Shown here: piece by piece, positions 2,760-14,550 of the stretch
Numbering within the stretch: the first letter of the stretch is position 1
Layout of the letters: the number at the start of each line of letters is the position of its first letter
Assembly (NCBI GenBank): GCA_963848135.1
Contig: CAWKCK010000005.1
Span: 682,001-704,868, forward strand
Direction of reading: 5' to 3'
DNA from: an uncultured delta proteobacterium
Lineage (GTDB): Bacteria; Desulfobacterota; Desulfobacteria; Desulfobacterales; SG8-13
Length of the DNA stretch: 22,868 nt
Notes under the pieces: generated by a model
Databases searched by the model: none
Seen by the model: the letters and a program-made list of their open reading frames with translations, nothing else
What the model was told of the DNA's origin: nothing
Program-made: the position numbers and the translations under genes

Positions 2760-3158
2760 CTATTTTATTAACTCGAAAAGTTCAAACTTAGAAGCCTTTT
2801 TGTCAAATGTGAGGACACTTTCACAGCCGGATATCTTTGCAGCACAGGCAATTAAAACATCTGAAAGATCGATTTTATTTTCTCGGGCTAAAAAAATAAA
2901 CCGTTGTATGGTCGGTTGAGCTTCAAATTTTAGAATAGGCATCAATAAGATCTCATTTATGGCGTCCAGAATTTCTTCTCTTGGTATTTCATAAACTGAG
3001 TCAAGCACCCATATTGTTTCTAAGACTACGAGCAGTGAAACACAAAAAATTTCCTTGTCAGCTTCCGCTTGTTTGAAAACCCTGTAAACTATTTTGGATT
3101 GATGCTCATCGTCTTTAACCAAAAAACGTACCAAAACATTCGTATCTAAGGCTTTCAT
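2760..3158 (-). CDS. vapC: PIN-domain VapC toxin
   Basis: N-terminal 'ALDTNVLVR', 'SDVLI', 'LTFDKK'. Overlaps the upstream AbrB gene. Confidence 0.92.
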   Translation of the reverse strand: MKALDTNVLVRFLVKDDEHQSKIVYRVFKQAEADKEIFCVSLLVVLETIWVLDSVYEIPREEILDAINEILLMPILKFEAQPTIQRFIFLARENKIDLSDVLIACAAKISGCESVLTFDKKASKFELFELIK

Positions 3159-3403
3159 TAAAATTTGTCCTTTATTTTCTGCCTTATCCTGCTATTCATC
3201 TCTTCGACTGAGATGGCCTTTCGGTCATGTTTATGTAACAACCCGAAAACGTCATCGACTTTTTTGGACACTGGCCTGATAAGCGCTTCCCTTTTATCAA
3301 TGACAACAAATTCTATCTTATCACCCGCGCTCAGCATCAGGGAATCCCGAATAGCTTTTGGAATCGTGACCTGACCCTTGGTGGTTATGGTTGCCGATGC
3401 CAT
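3158..3403 (-). CDS. AbrB/MazE/SpoVT antitoxin
   Basis: 'ATITTKGQVTIPKAIRDSL...GDKIEF'. AGGAGG RBS at 3411-3416 (minus). Confidence 0.92.
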   Translation of the reverse strand: MASATITTKGQVTIPKAIRDSLMLSAGDKIEFVVIDKREALIRPVSKKVDDVFGLLHKHDRKAISVEEMNSRIRQKIKDKF

Positions 3404-3430
3404 AATACAACCTCCTTACTAAATTTAAAA

Positions 3431-3468
3431 CCTTACTTTAGAGTAAGGCAAACAAACTGGCCTGTCAA
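3431..3468 (-). promoter_or_regulatory. Sigma70 promoter and operator of abrB-vapC
   Basis: Minus-strand TTGACA-17-TACTCT. Palindrome CCTTACT-TTAG-AGTAAGG (3431-3448) overlaps the -10. Confidence 0.7.
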
Positions 3469-3544
3469 TTACGATTTGGTGAAGGTATTCCTTCCAACTT
3501 TCAGCTGTCATTTTTAGCCTTTATTTTCCTTGAGCTTTTGAACT

Positions 3545-3651
3545 TTTCCCTCTCGACCCCTCGGCCCCCTTAATCCCGATTCCCGTATCCCGCAACTCGC
3601 AACCCGCAACTCGCAACCCGCAACCCGCAACCCGCAACCCGAAACCCGTAA
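3545..3651 (+). repeat. Spacer block with heptamer tandem array (CCCGCAA)n
   Basis: 11 degenerate 7-mers at 3575-3651. Segment 3545-3604 recurs at ~7269-7328. Confidence 0.9.
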
Positions 3652-3668
3652 CCCTCTAAGCGATCCCA

Positions 3669-4019
3669 TTATCGAAAGGCGTCTTCATTTATCTCGAAAA
3701 CCTTTGCTAATTTATCTCGGGTTTCTTTTCGATAAACAGCGCCATTTTTTTCCCATTTGGCTATGGACGATTGTTTCACGCCGAGGCGCTTCGCTAAATC
3801 TTTTTGCGTCCAGCCGCGTTCAATACGTTCCCTTTTAACCGGGTTCATAAAAATATAATTTTCTGCCTCTTTTTGATTATAGAGCGGTTCACTTTTCGCC
3901 TCACGGATGGCGCGCAGATCGGAATCATCCTCAAGGCAGTCCAACATTTTTTCAAAAAGATCAACCGGCAGAACCACAAATTTTACTTTGCCTTTTTCTT
4001 TTATTGTTTGAAATTCCAT
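3669..4019 (-). CDS. Xre-HTH antitoxin (HigA-like) with N-terminal interaction region
   Basis: 'RIERGWTQKDLAKRLGVKQSSIAKWE' HTH, directly downstream of a RelE gene. Confidence 0.85.
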   Translation of the reverse strand: MEFQTIKEKGKVKFVVLPVDLFEKMLDCLEDDSDLRAIREAKSEPLYNQKEAENYIFMNPVKRERIERGWTQKDLAKRLGVKQSSIAKWEKNGAVYRKETRDKLAKVFEINEDAFR

Positions 4020-4021
4020 CT

Positions 4022-4282
4022 CTACCTCTTATAGATGTCTCCTCGCGTTCGTATTTTGACCACTTCAATGGTGAGCTGATCACGATGCCGCGTATATATA
4101 ATTCTGTAAGGCCCGATTCTGAGGCGATATCCCGCTTCGCCCTTTAGTCTATCAACGTCTATATTTGTACCGTCGGGATCTTTCTGGAGTTCATGCAATT
4201 TGTCTATAATTCTCGATTTTATTTTAAGCGGAAGCCTTGCCAGGTAGTTTCTGGCCTGTCGCCTGTATATTAATCGATACAT
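4022..4282 (-). CDS. relE: RelE/ParE-family toxin
   Basis: 'YRLRIGPYRIIY...RTRGDIYK'. Confidence 0.9.
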   Translation of the reverse strand: MYRLIYRRQARNYLARLPLKIKSRIIDKLHELQKDPDGTNIDVDRLKGEAGYRLRIGPYRIIYTRHRDQLTIEVVKIRTRGDIYKR

Positions 4283-4316
4283 AGCTTTATTATACCTTTT
4301 AAAGCTATATTGTCAA
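4281..4316 (-). promoter_or_regulatory. Consensus sigma70 promoter giving a probable leaderless mRNA, with operator
   Basis: TTGACA-16-TATAAT-6 nt-ATG. Inverted repeat ATAGCTTTA (4281-89)/TAAAGCTAT (4300-08). Confidence 0.8.
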
Positions 4317-4474
4317 GCCAATAATTGTGTTATTTCGACCCAATGAAACCCGTTTTAGAGGATTATACATTAATGACCTTGAGCTGCTTTTTTCCGAAAT
4401 GCCGCTTGCAACCAAAAACAAAAAAGGCATTGAAAGATTTCCCGTTTCAATGCCGTCTGCGCCTGTTTTCTCTG

Positions 4475-4632
4475 GTAAAGCCCAGCGCCGCAGGCCAATT
4501 GGTTTTAATCGAGCGTCGTCTCCCGCTCGATTAAAAAAAACCCCCTCTGTGTTCTCTGCGTCTCGAACGAGCAACGCGAGTGGGCGGTGAAAATATTTTT
4601 GAGTGATTTATTGGGTACTTCTCGAGCAAAGC
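4475..4632 (+). repeat. Repeat family A copy 1
   Basis: AGCGCCGCAGGCCRATTGG + 13-bp hairpin (4503-15/4524-36) + CTCTGYGTTCTCTGCGTCTCGAACGAGC..GAGTGGGCGGTGA. Near-identical to 6534-6693. Confidence 0.92.
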
Positions 4633-4769
4633 GGGCGGCGATTAAGCCGATATCTGCAACCATTACCCCGTTCCGTATTAATTCCTTGAGCGTTTTACCC
4701 CGAGCTTTCACTTTCGCTCTTCGTAATATTCACATTGAACCTTCAATTTCAGGCTTTCAGCCGTTCACC

Positions 4770-4825
4770 TTGACACCGAAAAATGTGAGGCATACGATGA
4801 ATCAAAATGAATCAAGAGGTGAATC
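4770..4825 (+). promoter_or_regulatory. Sigma70 promoter with TGAATCA direct-repeat operator
   Basis: TTGACA-17-TACGAT at 4770-4798. Three TGAATCA units before/at the start. GAGGTG RBS. Confidence 0.7.
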
Positions 4826-5074
4826 ATGTCTCAAATCACTTTACGAGGGCTGGATCCGAAGATCGAACACGATTTACGCCGGATTGCCCAAAAAACAGGG
4901 AAATCACTTAACCGCATCGTTCTGGAAATGATCAATAAATCGGCAGGATACGATAAGAAACCGCCGGCCGCCTCACTGCGCAAACTCGCCGGGGGTTGGA
5001 CTGAAAACGAGGCTTCTGAATTTACCGAGTCGATTAAAATCTGCGAGCAGATAGATGAGGATGTGTGGCGATGA
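4826..5074 (+). CDS. RHH/Arc (FitA-like) antitoxin
   Basis: 'MSQITLRGLD...AQKTGKSLNRIV', C-terminal 'LAGGW...IDEDVW'. ATGA overlap with a PIN stub. Confidence 0.8.
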   Translation: MSQITLRGLDPKIEHDLRRIAQKTGKSLNRIVLEMINKSAGYDKKPPAASLRKLAGGWTENEASEFTESIKICEQIDEDVWR

Positions 5075-5109
5075 AAATACTGTTGGATACAAGCGCATAT
5101 CGCCTCTAA
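5071..5109 (+). pseudogene. Truncated VapC/PIN toxin (first 10 codons only)
   Basis: MKILLDTSAY, then runs into repeat C at 5098 and stops. Confidence 0.8.
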
Positions 5110-5217
5110 CTCCCAACGAATTTCTATTGCTTTCAGCTTATTAATCCTTTAATTCCATAATCCCTCAATTCCTGAATTTTCTTTTATCCCTTTCAGATCT
5201 TTCCCCTCGACCCCTTG
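5098..5217 (+). repeat. Repeat C copy 1 (contains AATYCCNN 8-mer array)
   Basis: ~120-bp near-identical match to 7167-7287. Confidence 0.92.
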
Positions 5218-5347
5218 AACCTCTGCACTCACACGGTATTAATAAAAGGTTCTTCTCCCGATTAGTGGGAGTATAACCATAAAATAATTTTCGTACCCAA
5301 AATCCCGGTCCTGTAAAACGGCGAAATATTCTCGAATGTGAATAGGA

Positions 5348-5797
5348 TTACTTGGGGGGATGACTTTTCTGAATGGATTGAGCTTTCAAGAGATTGATGA
5401 TAGCAATTTTATAGTCTTCAAAATCATTGAGATCATATTTTAATATGCCGACGACTATTTCGGCGTCCACTTGATCATAGTGGTGAACGACAATGTTTCT
5501 AAATTTTGCCATTTTTTCAAGTGCGGGAAACAGGTTATTTCCTATAATATTATTTTCATGGAGGACTTTGAATGCATCGGCATAACTCTTTGGTATTCGG
5601 TAACCCCTGTCTGCAATAATGTGCCCCGAGATATCTACACACGTTTCAATCATCATCTGCAGGGTTCTTTCGATAATGCGTTGAACCTTCCAATCGCCCG
5701 AATACTTAGCAACCGAAATATTTTCATATTCCTTGATCTGCTGATAGTATTCGTCTAATTCAGACAGCTTGCGGAGAATCAATGCCTCATCAACCAT
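5348..5797 (-). CDS. hepT: HEPN (DUF86/HepT-like) RNase toxin
   Basis: RNIVVH (R-X4-H) followed by HY. Likely start ATG 5797 with AGGAG RBS, overlapping the MNT gene end. Confidence 0.9.
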   Translation of the reverse strand: MVDEALILRKLSELDEYYQQIKEYENISVAKYSGDWKVQRIIERTLQMMIETCVDISGHIIADRGYRIPKSYADAFKVLHENNIIGNNLFPALEKMAKFRNIVVHHYDQVDAEIVVGILKYDLNDFEDYKIAIINLLKAQSIQKSHPPK

Positions 5798-6212
5798 GCA
5801 GATATCTCCTCTTGAGTTGCGCTGACTCTTTAACGGAAAAATCAAAATATTTTCTCATCACCAGAGATTCGAATCGGTGTCGCGTGAACGGTTCCTTATC
5901 GACAATCACTTTTTTGTTTTTCAGAACATTCATGACCAGGGGCAGGTCGGCTTTATTTAGAACAACTAAGTCAATTTCATCGGTTTGAAGGATATTAATA
6001 AGTCCTCCCAACAATTCGAACTTGCATTCGGCCAGATTCGCAGCCTCCTTCAAAAACACGGCGATGTCCACGTCACTCAAGGGCAATGGATCTCCCTTTG
6101 CCAAACTGCCGAAAAGATATGCAAAAAGGACATTTCCGTGTGAGCGCAGATAATCCTCGGCTGCAGGTAGGAGTCTCATGATGTTTTCTGGTAGTTTTGT
6201 AAATTTGATCAT
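5790..6212 (-). CDS. mntA: Minimal nucleotidyltransferase antitoxin (MntA-like)
   Basis: 'YLFGS...SDVDIA...IDLVVL'. Upstream TTGACA-17-TATTTT on minus at 6267-6239. Confidence 0.9.
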   Translation of the reverse strand: MIKFTKLPENIMRLLPAAEDYLRSHGNVLFAYLFGSLAKGDPLPLSDVDIAVFLKEAANLAECKFELLGGLINILQTDEIDLVVLNKADLPLVMNVLKNKKVIVDKEPFTRHRFESLVMRKYFDFSVKESAQLKRRYLHG

Positions 6213-6299
6213 CTGTTTTAACCACTTTTTATTGTGAAAAAATATCCGATAAATTTAGAAATGTCAAACCACACAGCTGTCTTGTGAAGCGGCATGGAC

Positions 6300-6447
6300 T
6301 CCTCATAAATTCTGCCTGCCTTGCCTGCCGCGCCTGCCCTGCCCCGTAGCTCCGGCAGATGGTACTGGGGTTAAATTCTGCTATGCAGACACCGATAGGT
6401 GATTTAACTGGGGCGCCTCGAACGAGCCAAGCGAGTGGGCGGTGAAT
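6300..6447. repeat. Nested short palindromes ending in a family A tail
   Basis: CCTGC repeats, CCCCGTAG...TACTGGGG, GTTAAAT...ATTTAAC, then GCGCCTCGAACGAGCCAAGCGAGTGGGCGGTGA. Confidence 0.65.
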
Positions 6448-6533
6448 AACTTTGGCCCTTAGTTCTCTTTTCTACTGTAACCATATCACTCGTATTAGCC
6501 CCAACGGTTGATAATCAATACCATTCGTAAAAT

Positions 6534-6772
6534 GTAAAGCCCAGCGCCGCAGGCCGATTGGTTTTAATCGAGCGTCGTCTCCCGCTCGATTAAAAAATAA
6601 AACCTTTCTGTATTCTCTGCGTCTCGAACGAGCAACGAGAGTGGGCGGTAAATAAATTTTTGTATGATTTATTGGGTACTTCTCGAGCGAAGCCCCGCAG
6701 ATAGCGGGGCAGGCTGGGCGGTGAAATTCTTTGTTTTGATTGACCGAGCCAAGCGAGTGGGCGGTGAAATTC
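6534..6772 (+). repeat. Repeat family A copy 2 plus two extra GGGCGGTGAAATTC tails
   Basis: 6534-6693 matches 4475-4632. Extra GCCCCGC/GCGGGGC hairpin at 6692-6710. Confidence 0.9.
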
Positions 6773-6835
6773 TCCCTTCCCTTCAAGTATTGAGTTATTC
6801 TCATAGTTGGGAAAAGATATCATTAAATATCCAGG

Positions 6836-7048
6836 CTAACCTGCTGCGCACAGGGCTTCAGCTTTATCCTCCAACGCTTTGACTAAATCCTCAATGGCAA
6901 TTACTTCTTTTTCCTCGAAATAGGCTTCTCCACACTGGCCACACACCCATGCCGGTACCTTATCCAGTGTAACGTGACAATCCTTACGATCAATGTGGAA
7001 TGGGATTGTGCCTGGTTTCATCTCTCCACCGCAATGAATGCATTTCAT
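6836..7048 (-). CDS. YgiT-type zinc finger (MqsA-like antitoxin domain)
   Basis: 'MKCIHCGG...VPAWVCGQCGEAYF'. Confidence 0.9.
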   Translation of the reverse strand: MKCIHCGGEMKPGTIPFHIDRKDCHVTLDKVPAWVCGQCGEAYFEEKEVIAIEDLVKALEDKAEALCAAG

Positions 7049-7131
7049 GGCTTAATCCTTTTTCTAAAATCCTCCGACCATTCTTCTGAGTCGGGAAGGT
7101 AGGCGGTTATGACAGCTAGGAAATCGTCTTC
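7045..7131 (-). pseudogene. 3' remnant of a DUF4258 toxin gene
   Basis: Minus frame reads DDFLAVITAYLPDSEEWSEDFRK, a DUF4258-like C-terminus upstream of YgiT. The 5' part is replaced by repeat. Confidence 0.75.
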
Positions 7132-7401
7132 ACCTTTAACCTTTGAGCTATTATTGGCCTCCAACCTATCGCCTCTAACTCCCAACGAATTTCTATTGCT
7201 TTCAGCTTACCAATCCTTTAATTCCACAATCCCTCAATTCCTGAATTTTCTTTTATCCCTTTCAGTTCTTTCCCTCTCGACCCCTTGGTCCCCTTAATCC
7301 CGATTCCCGTAACCCGCAACACGCACCCCGTTTCTCGTAACCCGCATCCCGCAACCTTTACCCCGCCTGCCCCGTGAGACCTGCTATCCATTGAACCTGG
7401 G
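7129..7401 (+). repeat. Composite spacer: repeat D head + repeat C copy 2 + heptamer array + CCCCGTG palindrome
   Basis: TTCACCTTTAACCTTTGAGCT from 7129. 7167-7287 matches 5098-5217. Eight 7-mers at 7299-7354. Confidence 0.88.
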
Positions 7402-7618
7402 TAGTTCTGACAGATGTTCAGGTTCTGATTGCACATTTAAGTTCGAACCATTTCCCTCTAATCTCTTAACACGAGAGTATTACCGAAAGTGAGCGGTTCA
7501 AATTTTAAAATCAAATTTTCCAGATAAATATACTTGACACCGACATGCAAAAGCGGTAATAATTTTTACCAGTTTTTAGATATAGTGGCAACAATTTTTA
7601 CCGGATGCGTGAGAACCC

Positions 7619-8923
7619 ATGCTGGACATGATCAAGGAAATTATCCTGGATTTTCAAAATGAAGTGCGCGACACCGGTGTAAAGCGCCACTTAGACTACG
7701 AACGTGTTGAGAAAAAAGCCTTTGTTTGCATCGGTGTGAGGCGTGCGGGCAAATCCACGCTGCTTTACCAGATAATTTCAGACCTTAACCTCAAAAACGT
7801 TAAAAAAGAAAATATTTTATACATCAATTTTTTCGACGACCGCTTGAACGAGGTTAAGCGCGTCAATTTATCTCTGGTCACAGAGGCTTATTTTTCGATC
7901 TTTCCCGAAAAAAAGGGATCTGAAACCGTTTATTGTTTTTTTGATGAAATCCAGGAAGCCGCTAACTGGGAGGCATTTGTCGACAGAATCTTGAGAACGG
8001 AAAAATGCGAGGTCTTCCTCACCGGCTCATCATCCAAAATGCTTTCAAAAGAGCTGTCAACGCAAATGCGCGGCCGGTCTATTTCCTGGGAGCTCTTCCC
8101 CTTCTCTTTCAAGGAGTTCTGCGATTACAAGGGAGCGGATTATAAAAAACTGACCTCAAAAAACCGGCTCATTCTGAGAAACTGCTTTGACGAATATTTT
8201 AAGAAAGGAGGATTCCCCGAAGTCAGAAACGCTTCCGAAAAGCTGCGGATCAAAATCCATCAGGAATATTATAAAGCCATCATGCACAGAGATGTTATTG
8301 AAAGGTTCGATGCACTACATCCGCAAGTCGTGATGCAGGCAGGTTACCGCATGATCGAGTCGTCCGGATCTCTCTATTCGATAAACAGAATTACTTCTTA
8401 CCTGAAGTCAATTGGCTACAAAGTAAGCAAGGGATTTGTTTCTTCTTGCATCGAATGGTTCGAAGATGTGTATTTCCTCTTTTCAGTGAAATTGTTCAGT
8501 CAGTCGGTGTCCATACAGAATGCCAATCCTAAAAAGGTATACTGCATTGATCATTCCCTGATCACCTCAATAGTGCCGACCATTTCTGAAAACACCGGAC
8601 ACATGCTTGAAAATATGATCTACATGCATTTAAGGCGTCAAACAAACGATATTTTTTACTATCGAACGAGTAAGGGCAAGGAAATCGATTTTCTGTGGCT
8701 TGACGCAACTGGCGAACGACACCTTGTCCAGGTTTGCACAACCCTTTCCGATCCTTCTACCCGGAAACGTGAAATTTCATCGCTAATCCAGGGGATGAAA
8801 GAAAACGGTATTCAAAAAGCAACAATCATCAATTTAAACGACGAAGATACCATCCTCGAAGATCAATACACCATCCGCGTCCTCCCGGCCTGGAAATTCC
8901 TGATTCAAACTCTTCCCGAATAA
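7619..8923 (+). CDS. AAA+ ATPase with DUF4143 domain
   Basis: Walker A GVRRAGKST, Walker B FFDEIQ, 'LTGSSS', 'GGFPE', C-terminal 'EIDF...VQV'. TTGACA at 7534. Confidence 0.9.
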   Translation: MLDMIKEIILDFQNEVRDTGVKRHLDYERVEKKAFVCIGVRRAGKSTLLYQIISDLNLKNVKKENILYINFFDDRLNEVKRVNLSLVTEAYFSIFPEKKGSETVYCFFDEIQEAANWEAFVDRILRTEKCEVFLTGSSSKMLSKELSTQMRGRSISWELFPFSFKEFCDYKGADYKKLTSKNRLILRNCFDEYFKKGGFPEVRNASEKLRIKIHQEYYKAIMHRDVIERFDALHPQVVMQAGYRMIESSGSLYSINRITSYLKSIGYKVSKGFVSSCIEWFEDVYFLFSVKLFSQSVSIQNANPKKVYCIDHSLITSIVPTISENTGHMLENMIYMHLRRQTNDIFYYRTSKGKEIDFLWLDATGERHLVQVCTTLSDPSTRKREISSLIQGMKENGIQKATIINLNDEDTILEDQYTIRVLPAWKFLIQTLPE

Positions 8924-9054
8924 TTGCTGAATTCCAGTAGCGTGTAACTCGCAACCCATGCTTTCCGGCTCAATTTATCCCGTGAAATTCATGTAAGTGA
9001 AAAGCCTGCTCATCGGCGCGGCGCTTATTTAACGGATCGGACTCAACGGGCTAA

Positions 9055-9204
9055 CCCGGAAATTTCATGAAATCATTTCAGCTCTTTCATTGGATCTTGG
9101 CGAGGGACAAAGTGTGCCCCGATTAAACGGATCATGAGTTTGATCAATGCCCCGATATGGGTTCTATTGGCCGCTCGGTGAAATGATTTCATGAAATATT
9201 CGGG
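9055..9204. mobile_element. 150-bp MITE with 26-bp TIRs and CTAA duplication
   Basis: CCCGGAAATTTCATGAAATCATTTCA vs reverse complement CCCGAATATTTCATGAAATCATTTCA (24/26). CTAA at 9051-54 and 9205-08. Confidence 0.8.
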
Positions 9205-9229
9205 CTAATCTGGTCAAACTGAATTCCCT

Positions 9230-9409
9230 TTCACCTTTAACCTTTGAGCTTTCAGCTGGCGCGAAGCGCCTTACCCGCAACCTTTACCCCGTTGAATTTC
9301 CCGAAGGGAAGATGCGCAGCATCATTCAACCGGGGCGAGATTCACAGCACCAAAATCTAAATACCAAATACCAAATACCAAACATTACACACCCTGCCCT
9401 CACATAGTA
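9230..9409 (+). repeat. Repeat D copy 1 with an internal palindromic insert
   Basis: 50 bp identical to 10185-10234. Insert CCCCGTTGAAT...ATTCAACCGGGG. AATACCA heptamers. Shared CCCTCACATAGTA end. Confidence 0.9.
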
Positions 9410-9575
9410 CTAATAAAATAATATACGTCCCCGAAATACCTAAAAAAATATATGCCCCTAAATTTCACGCCGTCCCTACACGCGTCCGTTTATTGTTTAG
9501 GCAATTATGGACGGCTCAATAAACATTCCCACTTTCTTGTTGCAAATTTGTATTAAATAAGTATTATATTTACAC

Positions 9576-9842
9576 ATGGATTTCGAATGGAATGAACAAA
9601 AAAGCATGTCAAACAGTGCCAAGCATGGTATCGATTTTGAAGCTGCAACCCAATTGTGGAATGATGGAGACAGGGTTGAGGTTCATACAACATTTCCTGA
9701 TGAAAGTCGAAGTATCATGATCGGAAGAATCGACAAGAAATTGTGGTCTGCGGTTTTTACGCAACGCGGAGAATCAATACGCATTATTTCCGTTAGGCGT
9801 GCCAGGAAAAAGGAGGCTGTACTTTATGAGAAAGAAAAATAA
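9576..9842 (+). CDS. brnT: BrnT-family toxin
   Basis: 'MDFEWNEQK...KHGIDFE...IRIISVRRA'. Confidence 0.92.
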   Translation: MDFEWNEQKSMSNSAKHGIDFEAATQLWNDGDRVEVHTTFPDESRSIMIGRIDKKLWSAVFTQRGESIRIISVRRARKKEAVLYEKEK

Positions 9843-10092
9843 AGCTAAATCCGCGGAAGAGTTTGACAGGCGTTTTAATGAAGGCGAGGATATTCACAAC
9901 CTTATTCAAATTTCGGAAGCAAAAATCGTCCGTCATGGGAAGAAAGTGCGTGTCACGCTGGATATCGCAGAGGGATTATTACAAGAAATTGATCGCATAC
10001 GAAATAAGATTGGCGTGGATCGAGCGGCATTGATAAAAATATGGCTGCATGAGCGAGTCCAAAAGGAAAAATCTATATCATTCGATTCGTAG
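9826..10092 (+). CDS. BrnA-like CopG/RHH antitoxin
   Basis: Likely start ATG 9826 after AGGAGG. 'AEEFDRRF..GEDI...RVTLD...GVDRAALIKIWL'. Confidence 0.85.
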   Translation: MRKKNKAKSAEEFDRRFNEGEDIHNLIQISEAKIVRHGKKVRVTLDIAEGLLQEIDRIRNKIGVDRAALIKIWLHERVQKEKSISFDS

Positions 10093-10184
10093 ACTTACAT
10101 TGGCCCCTGAGATTTACGCTTTCAGCACAAATTTCTCTTGAGCAGCTATGCTGTGTTTTATAAATTTTTCAACTGAAAAATCTA

Positions 10185-10292
10185 TTCACCTTTAACCTTT
10201 GAGCTTTCAGCTGGCGCGAAGCGCCTTACCCGCAGCACCAATCACCAAACACCAAACACTACATCCACTTGAACCCTTTCCCTCACATAGTA
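10185..10292 (+). repeat. Repeat D copy 2
   Basis: Matches 9230-9409 without the insert. Confidence 0.9.
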
Positions 10293-10365
10293 TTCGTTCC
10301 TTAAATTCTTGGGCGCAATCTAAGGTATTGAAACCACATCTATTAAAATAGAAAGAATTTTCGTC

Positions 10366-10400
10366 TTGACAACTATCACGTGACAGTTTACATTTGGGTC
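10366..10400 (+). promoter_or_regulatory. higBA promoter/operator (probable leaderless)
   Basis: TTGACA-17-TACATT-6 nt-GTG. Palindrome AACTATCACGTGACAGTT at 10371-10388. Confidence 0.8.
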
Positions 10401-10682
10401 GTGATAAAGACATTTACCAATAAAGAAACTCAACAGGTTTTCATTAAAGGCAAATCAAAACGTTTTCCGCCTGATTTGATCCAAAGGGCGATACGTCGAT
10501 TGGAATATATTCATTGGTCAACATGCTTGAACGATCTGAGCGTACCTCCAAGCAATCGATTACATGCCCTCAAAGGTGACAGAGAGGGGCAATATTCCAT
10601 ATCAATCAACGATCAATGGCGCATTTGTTTCCGGTTCATCGATGGCGACGCCTATGACGTAGAAATTACAGATTATCATTAA
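10401..10682 (+). CDS. higB: HigB toxin (RelE/ParE family)
   Basis: Start revised to GTG 10401 (MIKTF). 'PPSNRLHALKGDREGQYSISINDQWRICFRF...DYH'. Confidence 0.93.
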   Translation: MIKTFTNKETQQVFIKGKSKRFPPDLIQRAIRRLEYIHWSTCLNDLSVPPSNRLHALKGDREGQYSISINDQWRICFRFIDGDAYDVEITDYH

Positions 10683-10693
10683 GGAGAAACATA

Positions 10694-11008
10694 ATGGCGA
10701 TACCGAATGCCGCAAAACGAGAAATTCCTCCGACACACCCAGGTGAAGTTTTAAGGGAAGATTTCATTCCGGATTACGGTTTGACTACGGCATCTCTGGC
10801 TGATGCTTTGGGAGTATCCCGCCAAACAATCAATGAAATCCTTAGGGAAAGAAGAGCCATCACCCCTATTATGGCATTACGACTATCCCGGTTGTTTGGT
10901 AATACCCCTGAGTTTTGGCTCAACGCACAAAATGCTCGCGACATTTGGGATTCTGAGCAACATTTTAAAGATGCTCTTGAACAAATTCATCCACTAAATG
11001 CTGCATAG
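10694..11008 (+). CDS. higA: HigA antitoxin
   Basis: 'PTHPGEVLREDF...GVSRQTINE...MALRLSRLFGNTPEFWLNAQ'. Confidence 0.94.
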   Translation: MAIPNAAKREIPPTHPGEVLREDFIPDYGLTTASLADALGVSRQTINEILRERRAITPIMALRLSRLFGNTPEFWLNAQNARDIWDSEQHFKDALEQIHPLNAA

Positions 11009-11140
11009 CAAGCGCCGCATGCCGATTGGTTTTCATATGCCGTCCACTCAGCGGCAAATGAAAAAAACTTCTAACCTCTGCGTTCTCTGCGCCTGGTTTA
11101 TTGTAGTCAAGAACTTAAAATAGTTTTTGCTTATAATGAG

Positions 11141-11286
11141 GTCACCATTTCCAACCCTGGTATTTGAGAGTCCGCCAACGGCTCTGATCTTGCTTCATCG
11201 GGAATTGGTGACAGCGGGGAGTTTTGAATGCTCGAGCTGAAGGTCGAAAAAATCGCCTTAATGGCGCAGATGAAAATCTCCCCGCT
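11141..11286 (-). ncRNA. Predicted bridge/seek RNA: target-binding loop 11286-11213, donor-binding loop 11212-11141
   Basis: Two adjacent stem-internal loop-stem units. Loops carry TCTGCGCC/TCGAG (target) and AGCAAG/ACCAG (donor junction). Confidence 0.8.
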
Positions 11287-11292
11287 TTCACA

Positions 11293-12546
11293 TCAAGCTG
11301 CTAGTTGACAACGATGGGTATTGTAATCTTCGATATATATCGAGCCATCACGGGCCAATGCAAACATCACCGCCAGCAGTTTGCGCGAAATCGCCACCAG
11401 AGCTTTGATTTTGGGCATTCCACGCTCAATCATTCGGTTGTAAGGCACATGCATAATCCCATTGGACTTAACGGTATTGATGGCGCCAAAATACAACAGT
11501 TTGCGCATCAACGGTCGTCCGCGTTTGGAAATGTGGTGTCGCCCGCGGTGCTTGCCGGAACTGACCTCAAACAAATCCAGACCAGCCAGTTTGGTGATCT
11601 CAGGGAGCGTGGAAAATTGACGAAAGTCTCCCACCTCACCGATCAAGCCGGCAACGGTGATCAGGCCGATACCTCGCATCGAAAGAAGATACGGACTGTA
11701 TGGGATTTGCTCCAAATAGCTTCTCATGCGGCCTTCCAGGTGATCGACAAACGCATTGATCCTTTCGATCTGATCCACAAGGTAGCCAATCTCCGAGACA
11801 ATGCTCTGGCGGCCTTCGGTGACTCCGACCGAGGATTTTGCCGCCTGAAACAGCTGCCTGGCCCGTTGATGGTCCATCCTGCCACGGCTCACACGCCTCA
11901 TGTCCCGGCTCAACTGCTCCAGGCCCAGAGTCAACACGGCGCCCGGCGCAGGGCAATGCCTGATCAGATACAAGCCGGTTTTACAAGAAACGGTTTTGAT
12001 CACCTTCAAAAACTCTGGGAAAACGACAAACACAAGATGCTGCAACTGATTGAGTATGGCCGTGCGTTCTTTGATGGCGCGCTCTCTGGCCTGGGTCAGC
12101 CGCCGCAGCTCGGCCGCCGCTCCTTCCGGAACCACCACCGTCAAAGAATGACCGAGCATCATCACATCGGCAATGACTCGCGGGTCTTTACGATCGGTCT
12201 TGTTCGGAGAATTACCGGTAAGTTCCTTCACACGCTTACTGTGCATCGGGTTGATTTGCACCAGCTGCACCGGCTTCTGCCTCAAAAAGTGCAGCAGCGG
12301 CTCGGCGTAAGGCCCTGTGGACTCAAAGCCAACCAGAACCTGACTCAAGCGATGGGCTTTTTTAAACCGACACAGCTTCTTCCAAAATTGGTCAAAACCG
12401 TACCGGCAATTGGTAACTTCAAAAGGTTTTTCTTCTTTCCCATTGGGGGCACGGAAATATCCAAAATGAGACCCTTTACCGATATCCAGACTAACGATCA
12501 TTGTTTGCCTATTGACCCTTTTAACTTTTTGCGATTTAGTATTCAT
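11293..12546 (-). CDS. IS110-family DEDD recombinase/transposase
   Basis: SLDIGK, GFESTG, KTDRKD (DEDD) and C-terminal SSGK serine. Likely start ATG 12546 after AGAGGAG. Confidence 0.95.
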   Translation of the reverse strand: MNTKSQKVKRVNRQTMIVSLDIGKGSHFGYFRAPNGKEEKPFEVTNCRYGFDQFWKKLCRFKKAHRLSQVLVGFESTGPYAEPLLHFLRQKPVQLVQINPMHSKRVKELTGNSPNKTDRKDPRVIADVMMLGHSLTVVVPEGAAAELRRLTQARERAIKERTAILNQLQHLVFVVFPEFLKVIKTVSCKTGLYLIRHCPAPGAVLTLGLEQLSRDMRRVSRGRMDHQRARQLFQAAKSSVGVTEGRQSIVSEIGYLVDQIERINAFVDHLEGRMRSYLEQIPYSPYLLSMRGIGLITVAGLIGEVGDFRQFSTLPEITKLAGLDLFEVSSGKHRGRHHISKRGRPLMRKLLYFGAINTVKSNGIMHVPYNRMIERGMPKIKALVAISRKLLAVMFALARDGSIYIEDYNTHRCQLAA

Positions 12547-12913
12547 GGCTATGCTCCTCTTTTGATCCCAGATTACCAACCAACTTGCATGTAACTGGCA
12601 TCAAAATGAGTATAGCCTTTTTTGTTCATGCTCAAGGCTTACTGGAATATAGCAAGCTCTAACGAGCACCGCGAGTGGGCGGTGATAAAATCCTGCTCCT
12701 TCATATATAGATCCTGTCTGAATTAGGTCCCACAGGTTGACTTATTGTTTAGGAAGCAATCCGGAAAGACCTACCACCTGTTTTGCCTCTTCTGAAGGAT
12801 CTCCTCAATTCATCCGATTCACGATGATCATTTTTTGTTGCTAATCGTTATTTACTGCTGTGCGAGAACACCCTTAGAATATCCTGTACAGCCTATAGAC
12901 CCTTTCTAAGTTG

Positions 12914-13020
12914 AGCGCCGCAGGCCGATTGGTTTTATTTACCGCCCTATCTCAACGGCAAATAAAATAAATAAACTCAAACTCTGCGTTCTCTGTGACT
13001 CGAACGAAGCGAGGCGGTGA
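12914..13020 (+). repeat. Repeat family A copy 4
   Basis: AGCGCCGCAGGCCGATTGG + hairpin 12933-44/12956-67 + CTCTGCGTTCTCTGTGACTCGAACGAAGCGAGGCGGTGA. Confidence 0.88.
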
Positions 13021-13028
13021 ATAATCTT

Positions 13029-14030
13029 TTATGCTTCTATCGTAGTTTTTTCAGTTAGTAGCACCTTCTTCGACTCATCGTTTGTTATCGCCTTCTTTTT
13101 CTCCGATCGCCACAACAGCCACAAAATCGGCGCCCACAACAACAGCGCGATAAAGAAAAAAGGCTTCCCCCCTGCCCTGTGAAGCCAGCTATCAGTCAAC
13201 CATGAAGGATCGACATACGAAGCCATTAAAGTAAGTGCCGTAATGCGCAGCGCATTTTTAAAGATCGTTATCGGAATGATTGCAAGCACTGCCATAAGTC
13301 GGCGCCAGCCGGTTTCCAGAAATACATACCCGGCAGCTGTGGTCGCAACAATCAGCGACAGACTGGATCTGATACCGCTGCATTGCTCTGCGACCTGGAT
13401 TGATACCTCAGGCAATTCGAACACCGTATCGGTGCGCAAGTAAGTCAACCCGATGAGTCCGAAAACACCGTCCACCGTATGAGCCGTCATTTGCTGTAAA
13501 AACCGGATAGTTCGATCCAGAACAACTGTCGGGACCGGGATTGCAAAAAATAGAAAAAGTAGGGGAAACATTGCCCTTCGAAAGGCCCGCTTACCATATA
13601 ATCCGACAAACCCACCAATGATCCAGAGAACGAAGCCGATGATGCACAAGGTTAGATAGTCGTTCTGTTCAACTTCTAACTGAAAAACATTGACAGCAAA
13701 TCGCAGTATCAGGCCTGCAAGAACCACGGTAGCGCCGACCGCTGGCGCATATGCGACTTGCCGGAAAAAGTCTTTGCGTTTTAGGCCAACGATAGCGAAG
13801 CTAAACAGTGGGATTAGAGCAATATGTGAATAAAGCGAATCGTTGTGAGAAAGGACTGCCAGATGGTATAGCGGTGTCCAGAAAATAGCGATTCCGACGG
13901 CGCAGAAAACCGCAAATAGAATGCTGCGATGAATAAAAAAATTATTTGAGTTTGCTGGATTTATTGGGTTGATAGGGTTTGTTGGGTTTGTTAAATTCGC
14001 TTCGTTGTTTTTCGTAAATTCACTGGCTAA
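13029..14030 (-). CDS. Exosortase (EpsH/Xrt family); 5' end uncertain, possibly disrupted
   Basis: AEQCSGIRS (Cys), NALRI (Arg), WLH (His). Frame open upstream to 14030 with the YSHIALIP motif, but no ATG/GTG/TTG before 13727. Confidence 0.85.
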   Translation of the reverse strand, partial: LASEFTKNNEANLTNPTNPINPINPANSNNFFIHRSILFAVFCAVGIAIFWTPLYHLAVLSHNDSLYSHIALIPLFSFAIVGLKRKDFFRQVAYAPAVGATVVLAGLILRFAVNVFQLEVEQNDYLTLCIIGFVLWIIGGFVGLYGKRAFRRAMFPLLFLFFAIPVPTVVLDRTIRFLQQMTAHTVDGVFGLIGLTYLRTDTVFELPEVSIQVAEQCSGIRSSLSLIVATTAAGYVFLETGWRRLMAVLAIIPITIFKNALRITALTLMASYVDPSWLTDSWLHRAGGKPFFFIALLLWAPILWLLWRSEKKKAITNDESKKVLLTEKTTIEA

Positions 14031-14035
14031 TTAAT

Positions 14036-14550
14036 AAAACTACCCGCCGCAAGCGGACAGGGTATTAGAATAGTGACAACTGTCGGTCTTCGTACAACCG
14101 ATGATAGTTTGCTCCTTGATTTTTTACATTACTGCCCTATTGAATCCTCATTGCCAGGCTTACCAACGCTACTCGCAAAATATCCATCCGGCCAGAACTC
14201 TCCTGCCCACAGCTGCTTCTTAACCTGCGGGCAGCGCCTGAATATTTCTCTGGCACTAAAACTTTTCCTTATTGTTACGATTTTAGTGACACTGTATGTC
14301 GGAACTGACTGAACCAAAAAATGGACATTGTCCTTATCTGTGCCGATTTCTAAAAACTTTTTCTGATATCCCTTTTCGATCTTCAGCATATGTATTTATA
14401 ACTTCATCTACGTGTTTATCTATGACCACAAGCTTATATTTGGCTGGAAATACTAAATAATATATCAGGACGGTTACTTTATGGCTCTTATGTAGGTATT
14501 CGCTCCCACAGCGATTCTACGTCGCAAGCGGCGTGGAATACAACCCTGAA
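14036..14550 (-). mobile_element. Degenerate IS200-type element
   Basis: CGCAAGCG hairpins at both ends (14047-56, 14519-34) bracket a tnpA remnant. Boundaries approximate. Confidence 0.75.
14100..14509 (-). pseudogene. tnpA: IS200/IS605 Y1 transposase pseudogene
   Basis: SEYLHKSHKVTVLIYYLVFPAKY, then a frameshift near 14390. HUH reads NVH. Stop/frameshift at the expected catalytic Tyr (Y-V-K-N-Q). Confidence 0.85.

Follow-up and report, generated by a model that had tools for sequence, protein, structure and literature searches.

A two-loop guide RNA probably encoded downstream of the recombinase gene of an IS110/IS1111-family insertion sequence in an uncultured delta proteobacterium

The window analysed here, a stretch of 22,868 nucleotides from the genome of an uncultured delta proteobacterium, contains a recombinase gene followed by two back-to-back stem-loops, and this raises the question whether the segment encodes an RNA that guides the recombinase both to its target and to the ends of its own element. 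The earlier note had proposed this, reading the segment as a two-loop bridge or seek RNA of the IS110/IS1111 type and calling the mechanism class known, which it has been since 2024; the NCBIfam model NF033542 already names the family RNA-guided. Our analysis supports the two-loop reading through covariation of the stems, of the guides with the target flanks and of one donor guide with the left end of the element, while the match to the right end is invariant. We consider it very probable that an active-looking insertion sequence of the IS110/IS1111 family has its guide RNA encoded at positions 11141-11286. The anatomy of the locus, its repeated site-specific insertion and the covariation of its structure and of its guides with the flanks were observed directly in the window, the genome and the related loci.

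The element, its gene and the two halves of the target that it interrupts are the following.

11095-12656, minus strand: complete insertion sequence of 1562 bp, with the same ends in three copies and CT on both sides
11293-12546, minus strand: IS110-family recombinase gene, 417 amino acids plus stop, the only long gene of the element
11073-11094, plus strand: left half of the interrupted target repeat (repeat family D14), ending in the core CT
12657-12693, plus strand: core CT plus the right half of the interrupted repeat (repeat families D2 and D8)

The element starts with GGT... at 11095 and finishes with ...AGCAAG at 12656, with CT at 11093-94 and 12657-58. These ends agree with the circle junction AGCAAG-CT-GGT proposed earlier, the circle itself being predicted. 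The genome (18 contigs, 6.03 Mb) has three copies of the element, 99% identical, on contigs C5 (that of the window), C17 and C4, each with 1562 bp between two CT dinucleotides and all at the same position of one repeat family. In plus orientation the three sites read:

C5 (window): TCTGCGC-CT-[IS]-CT-CTAACGAGC
C17: TTCGCGC-CT-[IS]-CT-CGAGCGAG
C4: CCTGTGC-CT-[IS]-CT-CGAGCGAC

Uninterrupted copies of the repeat lie in the window near 4546-4593 and 6607-6653 and read TCTGCGT-CT-CGAACGAGC. The C4 site also has a near-identical unoccupied paralogue on the same contig, with a single CT; thus the core is common to target and element and is not duplicated from nothing. Iterated nhmmer searches revealed a wider repeat family of 42 genome copies in two subfamilies, and the insertion point falls within the small palindrome GCGT-CTCG-AA-CGAG-CA-ACGC. 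The natural target is a palindromic intergenic repeat of the host genome. No site in the genome agrees exactly with the 14-mer that the guides predict, and eight sites have at most one mismatch to it, against about two expected from composition by simple arithmetic.

The recombinase has the domain composition of the IS110 family, with an N-terminal DEDD/RuvC-like domain (Pfam PF01548, 100.6 bits, 1e-28, residues 19-177) and a C-terminal Transposase_20 domain (PF02371, 70.5 bits, 2e-19, residues 286-365). It scored 208 bits against a cut-off of 140 with NF033542, the model named 'IS110 family RNA-guided transposase'. The search of solved structures matched only IS621 (E 6e-9) and ISCro4 (E 1.2e-6), both bridge recombinases. 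In the alignments, E75, D118 and D121 face the same residues in IS621, D21 faces a D in ISCro4, and S330-G331 coincides with the SG motif of both. We take these aligned D/E/D/D and SG serine positions to be the catalytic residues of IS621, and on this alignment D21, E75, D118, D121 and S330 are candidate catalytic residues of the recombinase. In a plasmid collection, full-length matches were other IS110-family proteins of at most 35% identity, and for the Klebsiella and E. coli entries the alignment was limited to residues 244-409.

Within the element, 198 nt of non-coding DNA lie downstream of the recombinase gene and 110 nt upstream. The downstream region contains the putative RNA gene, on the same strand as the recombinase gene and 6 nt past its stop codon.

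11141-11286, minus strand: bridge/seek RNA gene of two stem-loops, by fold, consensus fold, pair counts and covariance model
11213-11286, minus strand: stem-loop 1 (helices 1 and 2), with the target-binding loop, the counterpart of the short seekRNA
11141-11212, minus strand: stem-loop 2 (helices 3 and 4), with the donor-binding loop

The coordinates, stems and motifs given in the earlier note were all recovered to the letter, and the folding it had called for, of the reverse complement of 11095-11292, gave two adjoining stem-loops with a large internal loop in each. Read on the minus strand, outer stem 1 is formed by AGCGGGGAG (11286-11278) with CTCCCCGCT (11221-11213) and outer stem 2 by GTCACCA.TTCC with GGAA.TGGTGAC (11212-11141). 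The minimum free energy of this fold was -55.1 kcal/mol (z = -2.83), equalled by one of 200 shuffles. The segment thus has the properties of bridge RNAs and seekRNAs as structured RNAs: it is non-coding, lies beside a recombinase gene and contains internal loops. The Rfam scan of 10500-13200 at E<=1 returned no family.

To place the structure in its family, related loci were collected by protein-guided scans, which gave 16 loci from genome records and 79 from metagenomes at 55-94% protein identity, with recombinases of 416-437 aa. The covariation reported below depends on loci picked by protein similarity and on regular expressions made for this analysis, which used the invariant inner hairpin (AAGGCG...CGACCTTC) and the conserved ends as anchors for the RNA and the flanks; from 96 sequences this yielded the RNA anchor in 85, the right-end flank in 68 and the left-end flank in 72. 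With the covariance model R1, built from 70 RNAs, the window and 91 of the 95 related loci each gave a match to the RNA, on the strand of the gene. In the remaining four (L022, L037, L064 and L067) the available DNA stops within or just after the gene. R1 scored 154 bits at the window RNA and had exactly three matches in the genome, all of them IS copies, so that the whole genome held no orphan RNA copy outside the IS by this model. On three Firmicutes plasmid relatives (34% protein identity) the best R1 match had E 0.3; the RNA family is hence not traceable that far.

The tested structure comprised 42 pairs in four helices over 69 distinct sequences. Standard pairs filled 95.3% of the cells, against 37-46% when the partners were slid by one to three columns. 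Changes on both sides were seen in 25 of the 42 pairs, and none of the five observed measures was reached in column shuffles (0/500). Both stem-loops contributed: helices 1 and 2 of stem-loop 1 were paired in 98.7% and 98.9% of cells with 12 pairs changed on both sides, and helices 3 and 4 of stem-loop 2 in 87% and 99.4% with 13 such pairs. One related locus departs from the common form. At L065:1954-2102 the target loop is intact, unrelated A-rich DNA follows from the donor guide onward and R1 is weaker (104.6 bits); this may be an element that naturally lacks a donor loop, or one that is damaged.

The internal loop of stem-loop 1 carries the two segments that match the target.

11263-11270, minus strand: 5' target guide UCUGCGCC, by identity with plus-strand 11086-11093 and by flank covariation
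11230-11237, minus strand: 3' target guide GCUCGAG, then an invariant C, matching CT-CGAGC at C17 and C4 at 7/7

In the DNA, TCTGCGCC at 11270-11263 of the minus strand is the same as plus-strand 11086-11093. As read from the sequence, the 5' guide UCUGCGCC is predicted to pair with the gene-sense strand of the flank after the right end (core G plus GCGCAGA), and the 3' guide with the opposite strand of the flank before the left end, core included. For the 3' guide the earlier note had given TCGAG at 11235-11231, the letters of which are right; its true extent is GCUCGAG(C), 11237-11230. Its complementarity to CTCGA likewise stands for the repeat consensus and for C17 and C4 (CT-CGAGC, 7/7 with the core) but not for the flank in the window, which reads CT-CTAAC. 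The natural sites fit the guides imperfectly: just 3 of 6 scored positions agree with the 3' guide at the window copy, and 5 of 7 with the 5' guide at the C17 and C4 copies. As GCUCGAGC is a palindrome, the strand addressed by the 3' guide is unreadable from the window alone, and the mutual-information map decides it.

Guide and target covaried across the homologues at both flanks, the check that had been proposed earlier, and none of 2000 shuffles reached the observed values (0/2000). The reverse complement of the 5' segment agreed with the right-end flank at 5.25 of 7 positions on average (shuffled 3.08 ± 0.14, highest 3.51; n = 68), and the 3' segment agreed with the left-end flank at 4.46 of 6 (shuffled 1.88 ± 0.16, highest 2.47; n = 72). 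With one locus per distinct guide pair, the values were 5.32 against 2.98 for the 5' segment (56 loci) and 4.27 against 1.87 for the 3' segment (56 loci). In the mutual-information map of 57 distinct RNA-target pairs, a run of complementarity links RNA positions 20-23 with target positions +6 to +3 and a run of identity links RNA positions 51-55 with target positions -5 to -1, both runs meeting at the core. These runs place the 5' guide on the gene-sense strand on the right-end side and the 3' guide on the other strand on the left-end side. Two segments that address opposite strands and change with the target are thus present, as in bridge RNAs and seekRNAs. A few loci fit poorly: L011 scored 0/6 and 1/7 in the fixed register, and L070, L054 and L058 were likewise weak. 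The low scores of L039-L044 come from a register off by one, and L011 and L070 are real misfits. A separate observation concerns L084 and L085, two copies of a related element on one 7932-bp metagenome contig, which have identical guides and identical right flanks GTCTCAAAGTAGGA; the identity of the flanks suggests insertion into a repeated target there as well.

Stem-loop 2 carries two segments that match the ends of the element itself.

11189-11194, minus strand: 5' donor guide AGCAAG, the reverse complement of CTTGCT (12656-12651), the six bases with which the left end begins
11157-11161, minus strand: 3' donor guide ACCAG, the same letters as the final bases of the right end together with the core (…AACC-AG)

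In 67 of 69 loci the 5' donor guide and the left end agree, two compensated variant types included:

AGCAAG with CTTGCT: 57 loci
AGCACG with CGTGCT: 7 loci
AGCUCG with CGAGCT: 3 loci
discordant donor guide and left end: 2 loci

The right end, AAACC-AG, is nearly invariant, and the ACCAG match is therefore uninformative by covariation. The second loop thus matches the joined ends as a donor loop would, at the left end by covariation and at the right end by an invariant match of 5 nt.

The donor loop bears on the strongest rival reading, in which stem-loop 1 guides alone, after the short seekRNA model, and stem-loop 2 is a module for processing, stability or protein binding; the ends would then be recognised via the flanking target sequence or the subterminal repeats, and the likeness of stem-loop 2 to the ends would not reflect donor pairing. 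Such a division of labour has a precedent in ISEc11, for which the 82-nt short seekRNA sufficed for transposition, beat the long form in efficiency and also needed an intact target sequence beside the donor (PMC11187229, Siddiquee et al. 2024; this and the other papers cited here are drawn on for part of their text), and it would suit a right-end match that is just 5 nt long and invariant. Nevertheless, we regard it as unlikely, for the 5' donor guide covaries with the left end, ten loci belonging to the two variant types, and the geometry of stem-loop 2 mirrors that of stem-loop 1. Furthermore, both loops are predicted for IS1111-group elements in the sections of PMC11208160 (Durrant et al. 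2024) used here, which report predicted right-end bridge RNAs for 93% of that group.

The guide RNA reading, with both loops used, was also weighed against a role of the region as DNA. G-U pairs are frequent in the alignment (columns 3/80 in 33 of 69 sequences, columns 89/154 in 49 and columns 99/145 in 24), which points to an RNA of the gene's strand and not of its complement, where they would be A-C mismatches. That recombinase-binding or cruciform sites near the right end act as DNA, the flank matches reflecting DNA-DNA synapsis, is in our view very improbable: the inverted-repeat stems can in principle form in DNA, and the RNA is known here from sequence alone, but the region lies 46 nt inside the end and not at it, and relatives co-purify with RNA of the corresponding region (PMC11187229, in the parts consulted).

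Chance was assessed with 20000 shuffles of the 198-nt non-coding region, of which 0.19% contained the 8-mer TCTGCGCC, 0.69% GCTCGAG, 4.9% AGCAAG and 17% ACCAG. Another reading makes the segment an ordinary structure of the 3' untranslated region, for instance a terminator or a stabiliser of the mRNA, with guide-like matches by coincidence. It would suit a strongly structured segment directly past a stop codon but is just as improbable, given that neither hairpin is followed by a T-run on the minus strand, that all four guide motifs together occurred in none of the shuffles (0/20000) and that the family-wide flank covariation goes far beyond shuffles, with the mutual-information runs and the donor concordance beside it.

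Expression of the guide RNA would follow from the joining of the ends, each of which carries half of a promoter.

11105-11110, minus strand: -35 box TTGACT in the right end, TTGAC[AT] in 48 of 55 elements
12646-12651, minus strand: -10 box TATATT after TGC (extended -10) in the left end, TATATT in 50 of 55 elements and conserved in the alignment

Across the junction the predicted spacer measures 17 nt, made up of 10 nt from the right end, AG and 5 nt from the left end, and the putative TTGACT-17 nt-TATATT promoter would exist only once the ends are joined. The sigma-70 scan of 10950-12800 in the integrated state gave no promoter. Promoter halves at the ends and none in the integrated state are consistent with the view of PMC11187229, in its sections used here, that the recombinase gene is driven from a promoter at the junction and that read-through from there yields the downstream guide RNA. 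Read-through from the host may also be possible, since an exosortase-family gene (13029-13727) lies upstream of the element on the same strand. The terminator scan of 10950-12800 returned one plus-strand terminator-like site only, inside the RNA gene, which we regard as the stem of loop 2 read backwards. Metatranscriptome contigs from several studies, 90-99% alike and hence from relatives, cover 11076-11409, 11129-11232 and 11124-11192 among other parts; they are a hint at most, as such libraries can contain DNA and the contigs are without strand or ends. None of these contigs, which cover the element only in parts so that gaps carry no meaning, contained the circle junction. By analogy with published relatives, the RNA would be made, bound by the recombinase and required.

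Several features of the neighbourhood were recorded beside the element. Positions 2760-11008 hold an island of five type II toxin-antitoxin-like pairs in mixed orientation, together with an AAA_14/DUF4143 ATPase gene (7619-8923). Pfam named both genes in three pairs (PIN/MazE-like, ParE/RelB-HTH and HepT/nucleotidyltransferase) and the toxin alone in the BrnT and HigB pairs. The neighbour of HigB is an HTH protein, and that of BrnT, which had no Pfam match, is at a guess BrnA. The pairs are separated by copies of the IS-target repeat, and the arrangement looks cassette-like. The idea that the target repeat consists of integron attC sites, the targets of the IS1111-attC subgroup, received no support from the integrase search: no integron integrase over the model cut-off was found in the genome, the best score being 93.5 bits against 265, from a 78-aa frame on another contig (L103, C3:901196-901463) that matches the last 57 positions of the integron-integrase model and appears to be a piece of an integrase gene. 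At 3579-3655, 7303-7357 and 8931-8957, larger 97-nt repeats contain runs of a unit of 7 nt, CCCGCAA or a variant of it.

The second subfamily of the repeat related to the IS target is more uniform (…GTCTGTGTCCGTCAGCGTCTGTCGAGCGAGCGAAGTGAGCGGGCGGCCAAT…) and occurs in the window at 1082-1132 and 2673-2724 and at about 20 further places in the genome. In the window, it is adjoined by a perfect hairpin, TTTTGCCTCC-GCGACCTGC-GGAGGCAAAA (1133-1162 and 2727-2756). None of the copies of this subfamily contains the IS; the repeat could be a REP or a miniature mobile element. On the minus strand at 14129-14389 there is an 86-aa frame whose match to the IS200-like Y1 transposase domain (PF01797, 68 bits) spans positions 34-113 of the domain. 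It may come from an IS200/IS605 gene that was truncated, or from a REP-associated tyrosine transposase; a gene of the second kind would suit the many palindromic repeats nearby.

The element can be compared with three published systems, in each case with the parts of the reports at hand. For IS1111-family elements whose non-coding region lies downstream, the RNA has been shown to co-purify, to be necessary and to be reprogrammable (PMC11187229). As in the seekRNAs of ISEc11, ISKpn4, ISPa11 and ISPst6 described there, the RNA lies in a long non-coding region downstream of the recombinase, and as in IS1111 seekRNAs the guide matching the gene-sense (top) strand stands 5' of the bottom-strand guide, the order that PMC11187229 gives for IS1111 and the opposite of the IS110 type. 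Insertion is site-specific without duplication beyond the shared core, and a promoter is predicted on joining of the ends, again as in IS1111 elements. The earlier note had concluded that target and donor are recognised in inverted orientation, the core reading AG relative to the gene. The core does read AG; with the RNA downstream and the guides ordered as in IS1111, however, this inversion is the known IS1111-type arrangement in PMC11187229 and not a new one. The long downstream non-coding region, the RNA within it and the guide order are thus all those of the IS1111 group.

In contrast to IS1111 recombinases of 330-350 aa, the protein here has 417 aa and those of its relatives 416-437 aa, outside the IS1111 range. 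The subterminal inverted repeats, 7-17 bp in IS1111, are short and imperfect here: the best with one mismatch measure 5-9 bp in 55 elements, typically TATTGyAGT at positions 8-16 of the left end and positions 5-13 of the right end, of which the window matches 7/9. Moreover, the second (donor) loop is clearly readable here, a difference from the IS1111 seekRNAs as described in the sections used. The element is site-specific, has no terminal inverted repeats and has ends that would form a promoter in the predicted circle, as expected of the IS110 family.

IS621 (PMC11208160; 8WT6 and others) has a target loop followed by a donor loop, with the core included in the pairing and each loop pairing through its 5' side to the bottom strand and through its 3' side to the top strand. 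The present RNA is alike in its two internal loops, in the order of target loop and donor loop and in the pairing of the loops with opposite strands on either side of a CT core, and the recombinase likewise has DEDD plus serine motifs. The RNA of IS621, however, is upstream in the left end, whereas here it is downstream with the strand order reversed relative to the gene, and the two proteins are distant (E 6e-9, two short stretches). In the portion of the supplements of PMC11208160 at hand, the invariant RNA motif, the recombinase peptides and some IS names had no counterpart.

Insertion into a conserved palindromic intergenic repeat is shared with ISPpu9 (PMC12288879) and ISPpu10 (bioRxiv 10.64898/2026.03.19.712850) of Pseudomonas putida, to judge by the parts of these reports used. 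ISPpu9 also has a small RNA gene downstream of its transposase gene. The host phylum and the repeat family are different, and three additional ssr9 copies accompany ISPpu9, whereas R1 matches only the three IS copies here.

So far the clade is represented by records whose titles name deltaproteobacterial, Nitrospirota and similar uncultured bacteria, from genomes and metagenomes. With its IS110-like long protein and IS1111-like arrangement it might, as a tentative suggestion that we hold to be rather doubtful, form an undescribed subfamily linking the groups IS110 and IS1111. Were this true, the clade would represent a natural intermediate in the shift of the guide RNA from one element end to the other that has been proposed, and its two-loop scaffold, fully readable and accompanied by about 67 distinct guide pairs found in nature, would be available for engineering.

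For the guide RNA reading as a whole, the following course of events is proposed. The two guides in the internal loop of stem-loop 1 would pair with opposite target strands on either side of the CT/AG core, overlapping there, and AGCAAG and ACCAG in stem-loop 2 would pair likewise with the element's own abutted ends around the core. The recombinase holding this RNA would carry the element, as a circular copy, to a site that matches, and strand exchange at the core would leave CT on either side of the insertion. The joined ends would provide the TTGACT-17 nt-TATATT promoter for the recombinase gene and then, by read-through, for the RNA.

The finding leaves the known mechanism unchanged. As the guides match the repeat, the element is found in just one family of intergenic repeats in this genome. 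Four guides, core, natural target repeat and junction promoter can all be read from the sequence, which makes the locus a clean example of RNA-guided recombination that can be checked independently. The approximately 90 natural variants of the family reveal which positions of the RNA carry the code, and the finding is useful as a worked example to refer to; the element might also provide programmable recombinases with a new scaffold.
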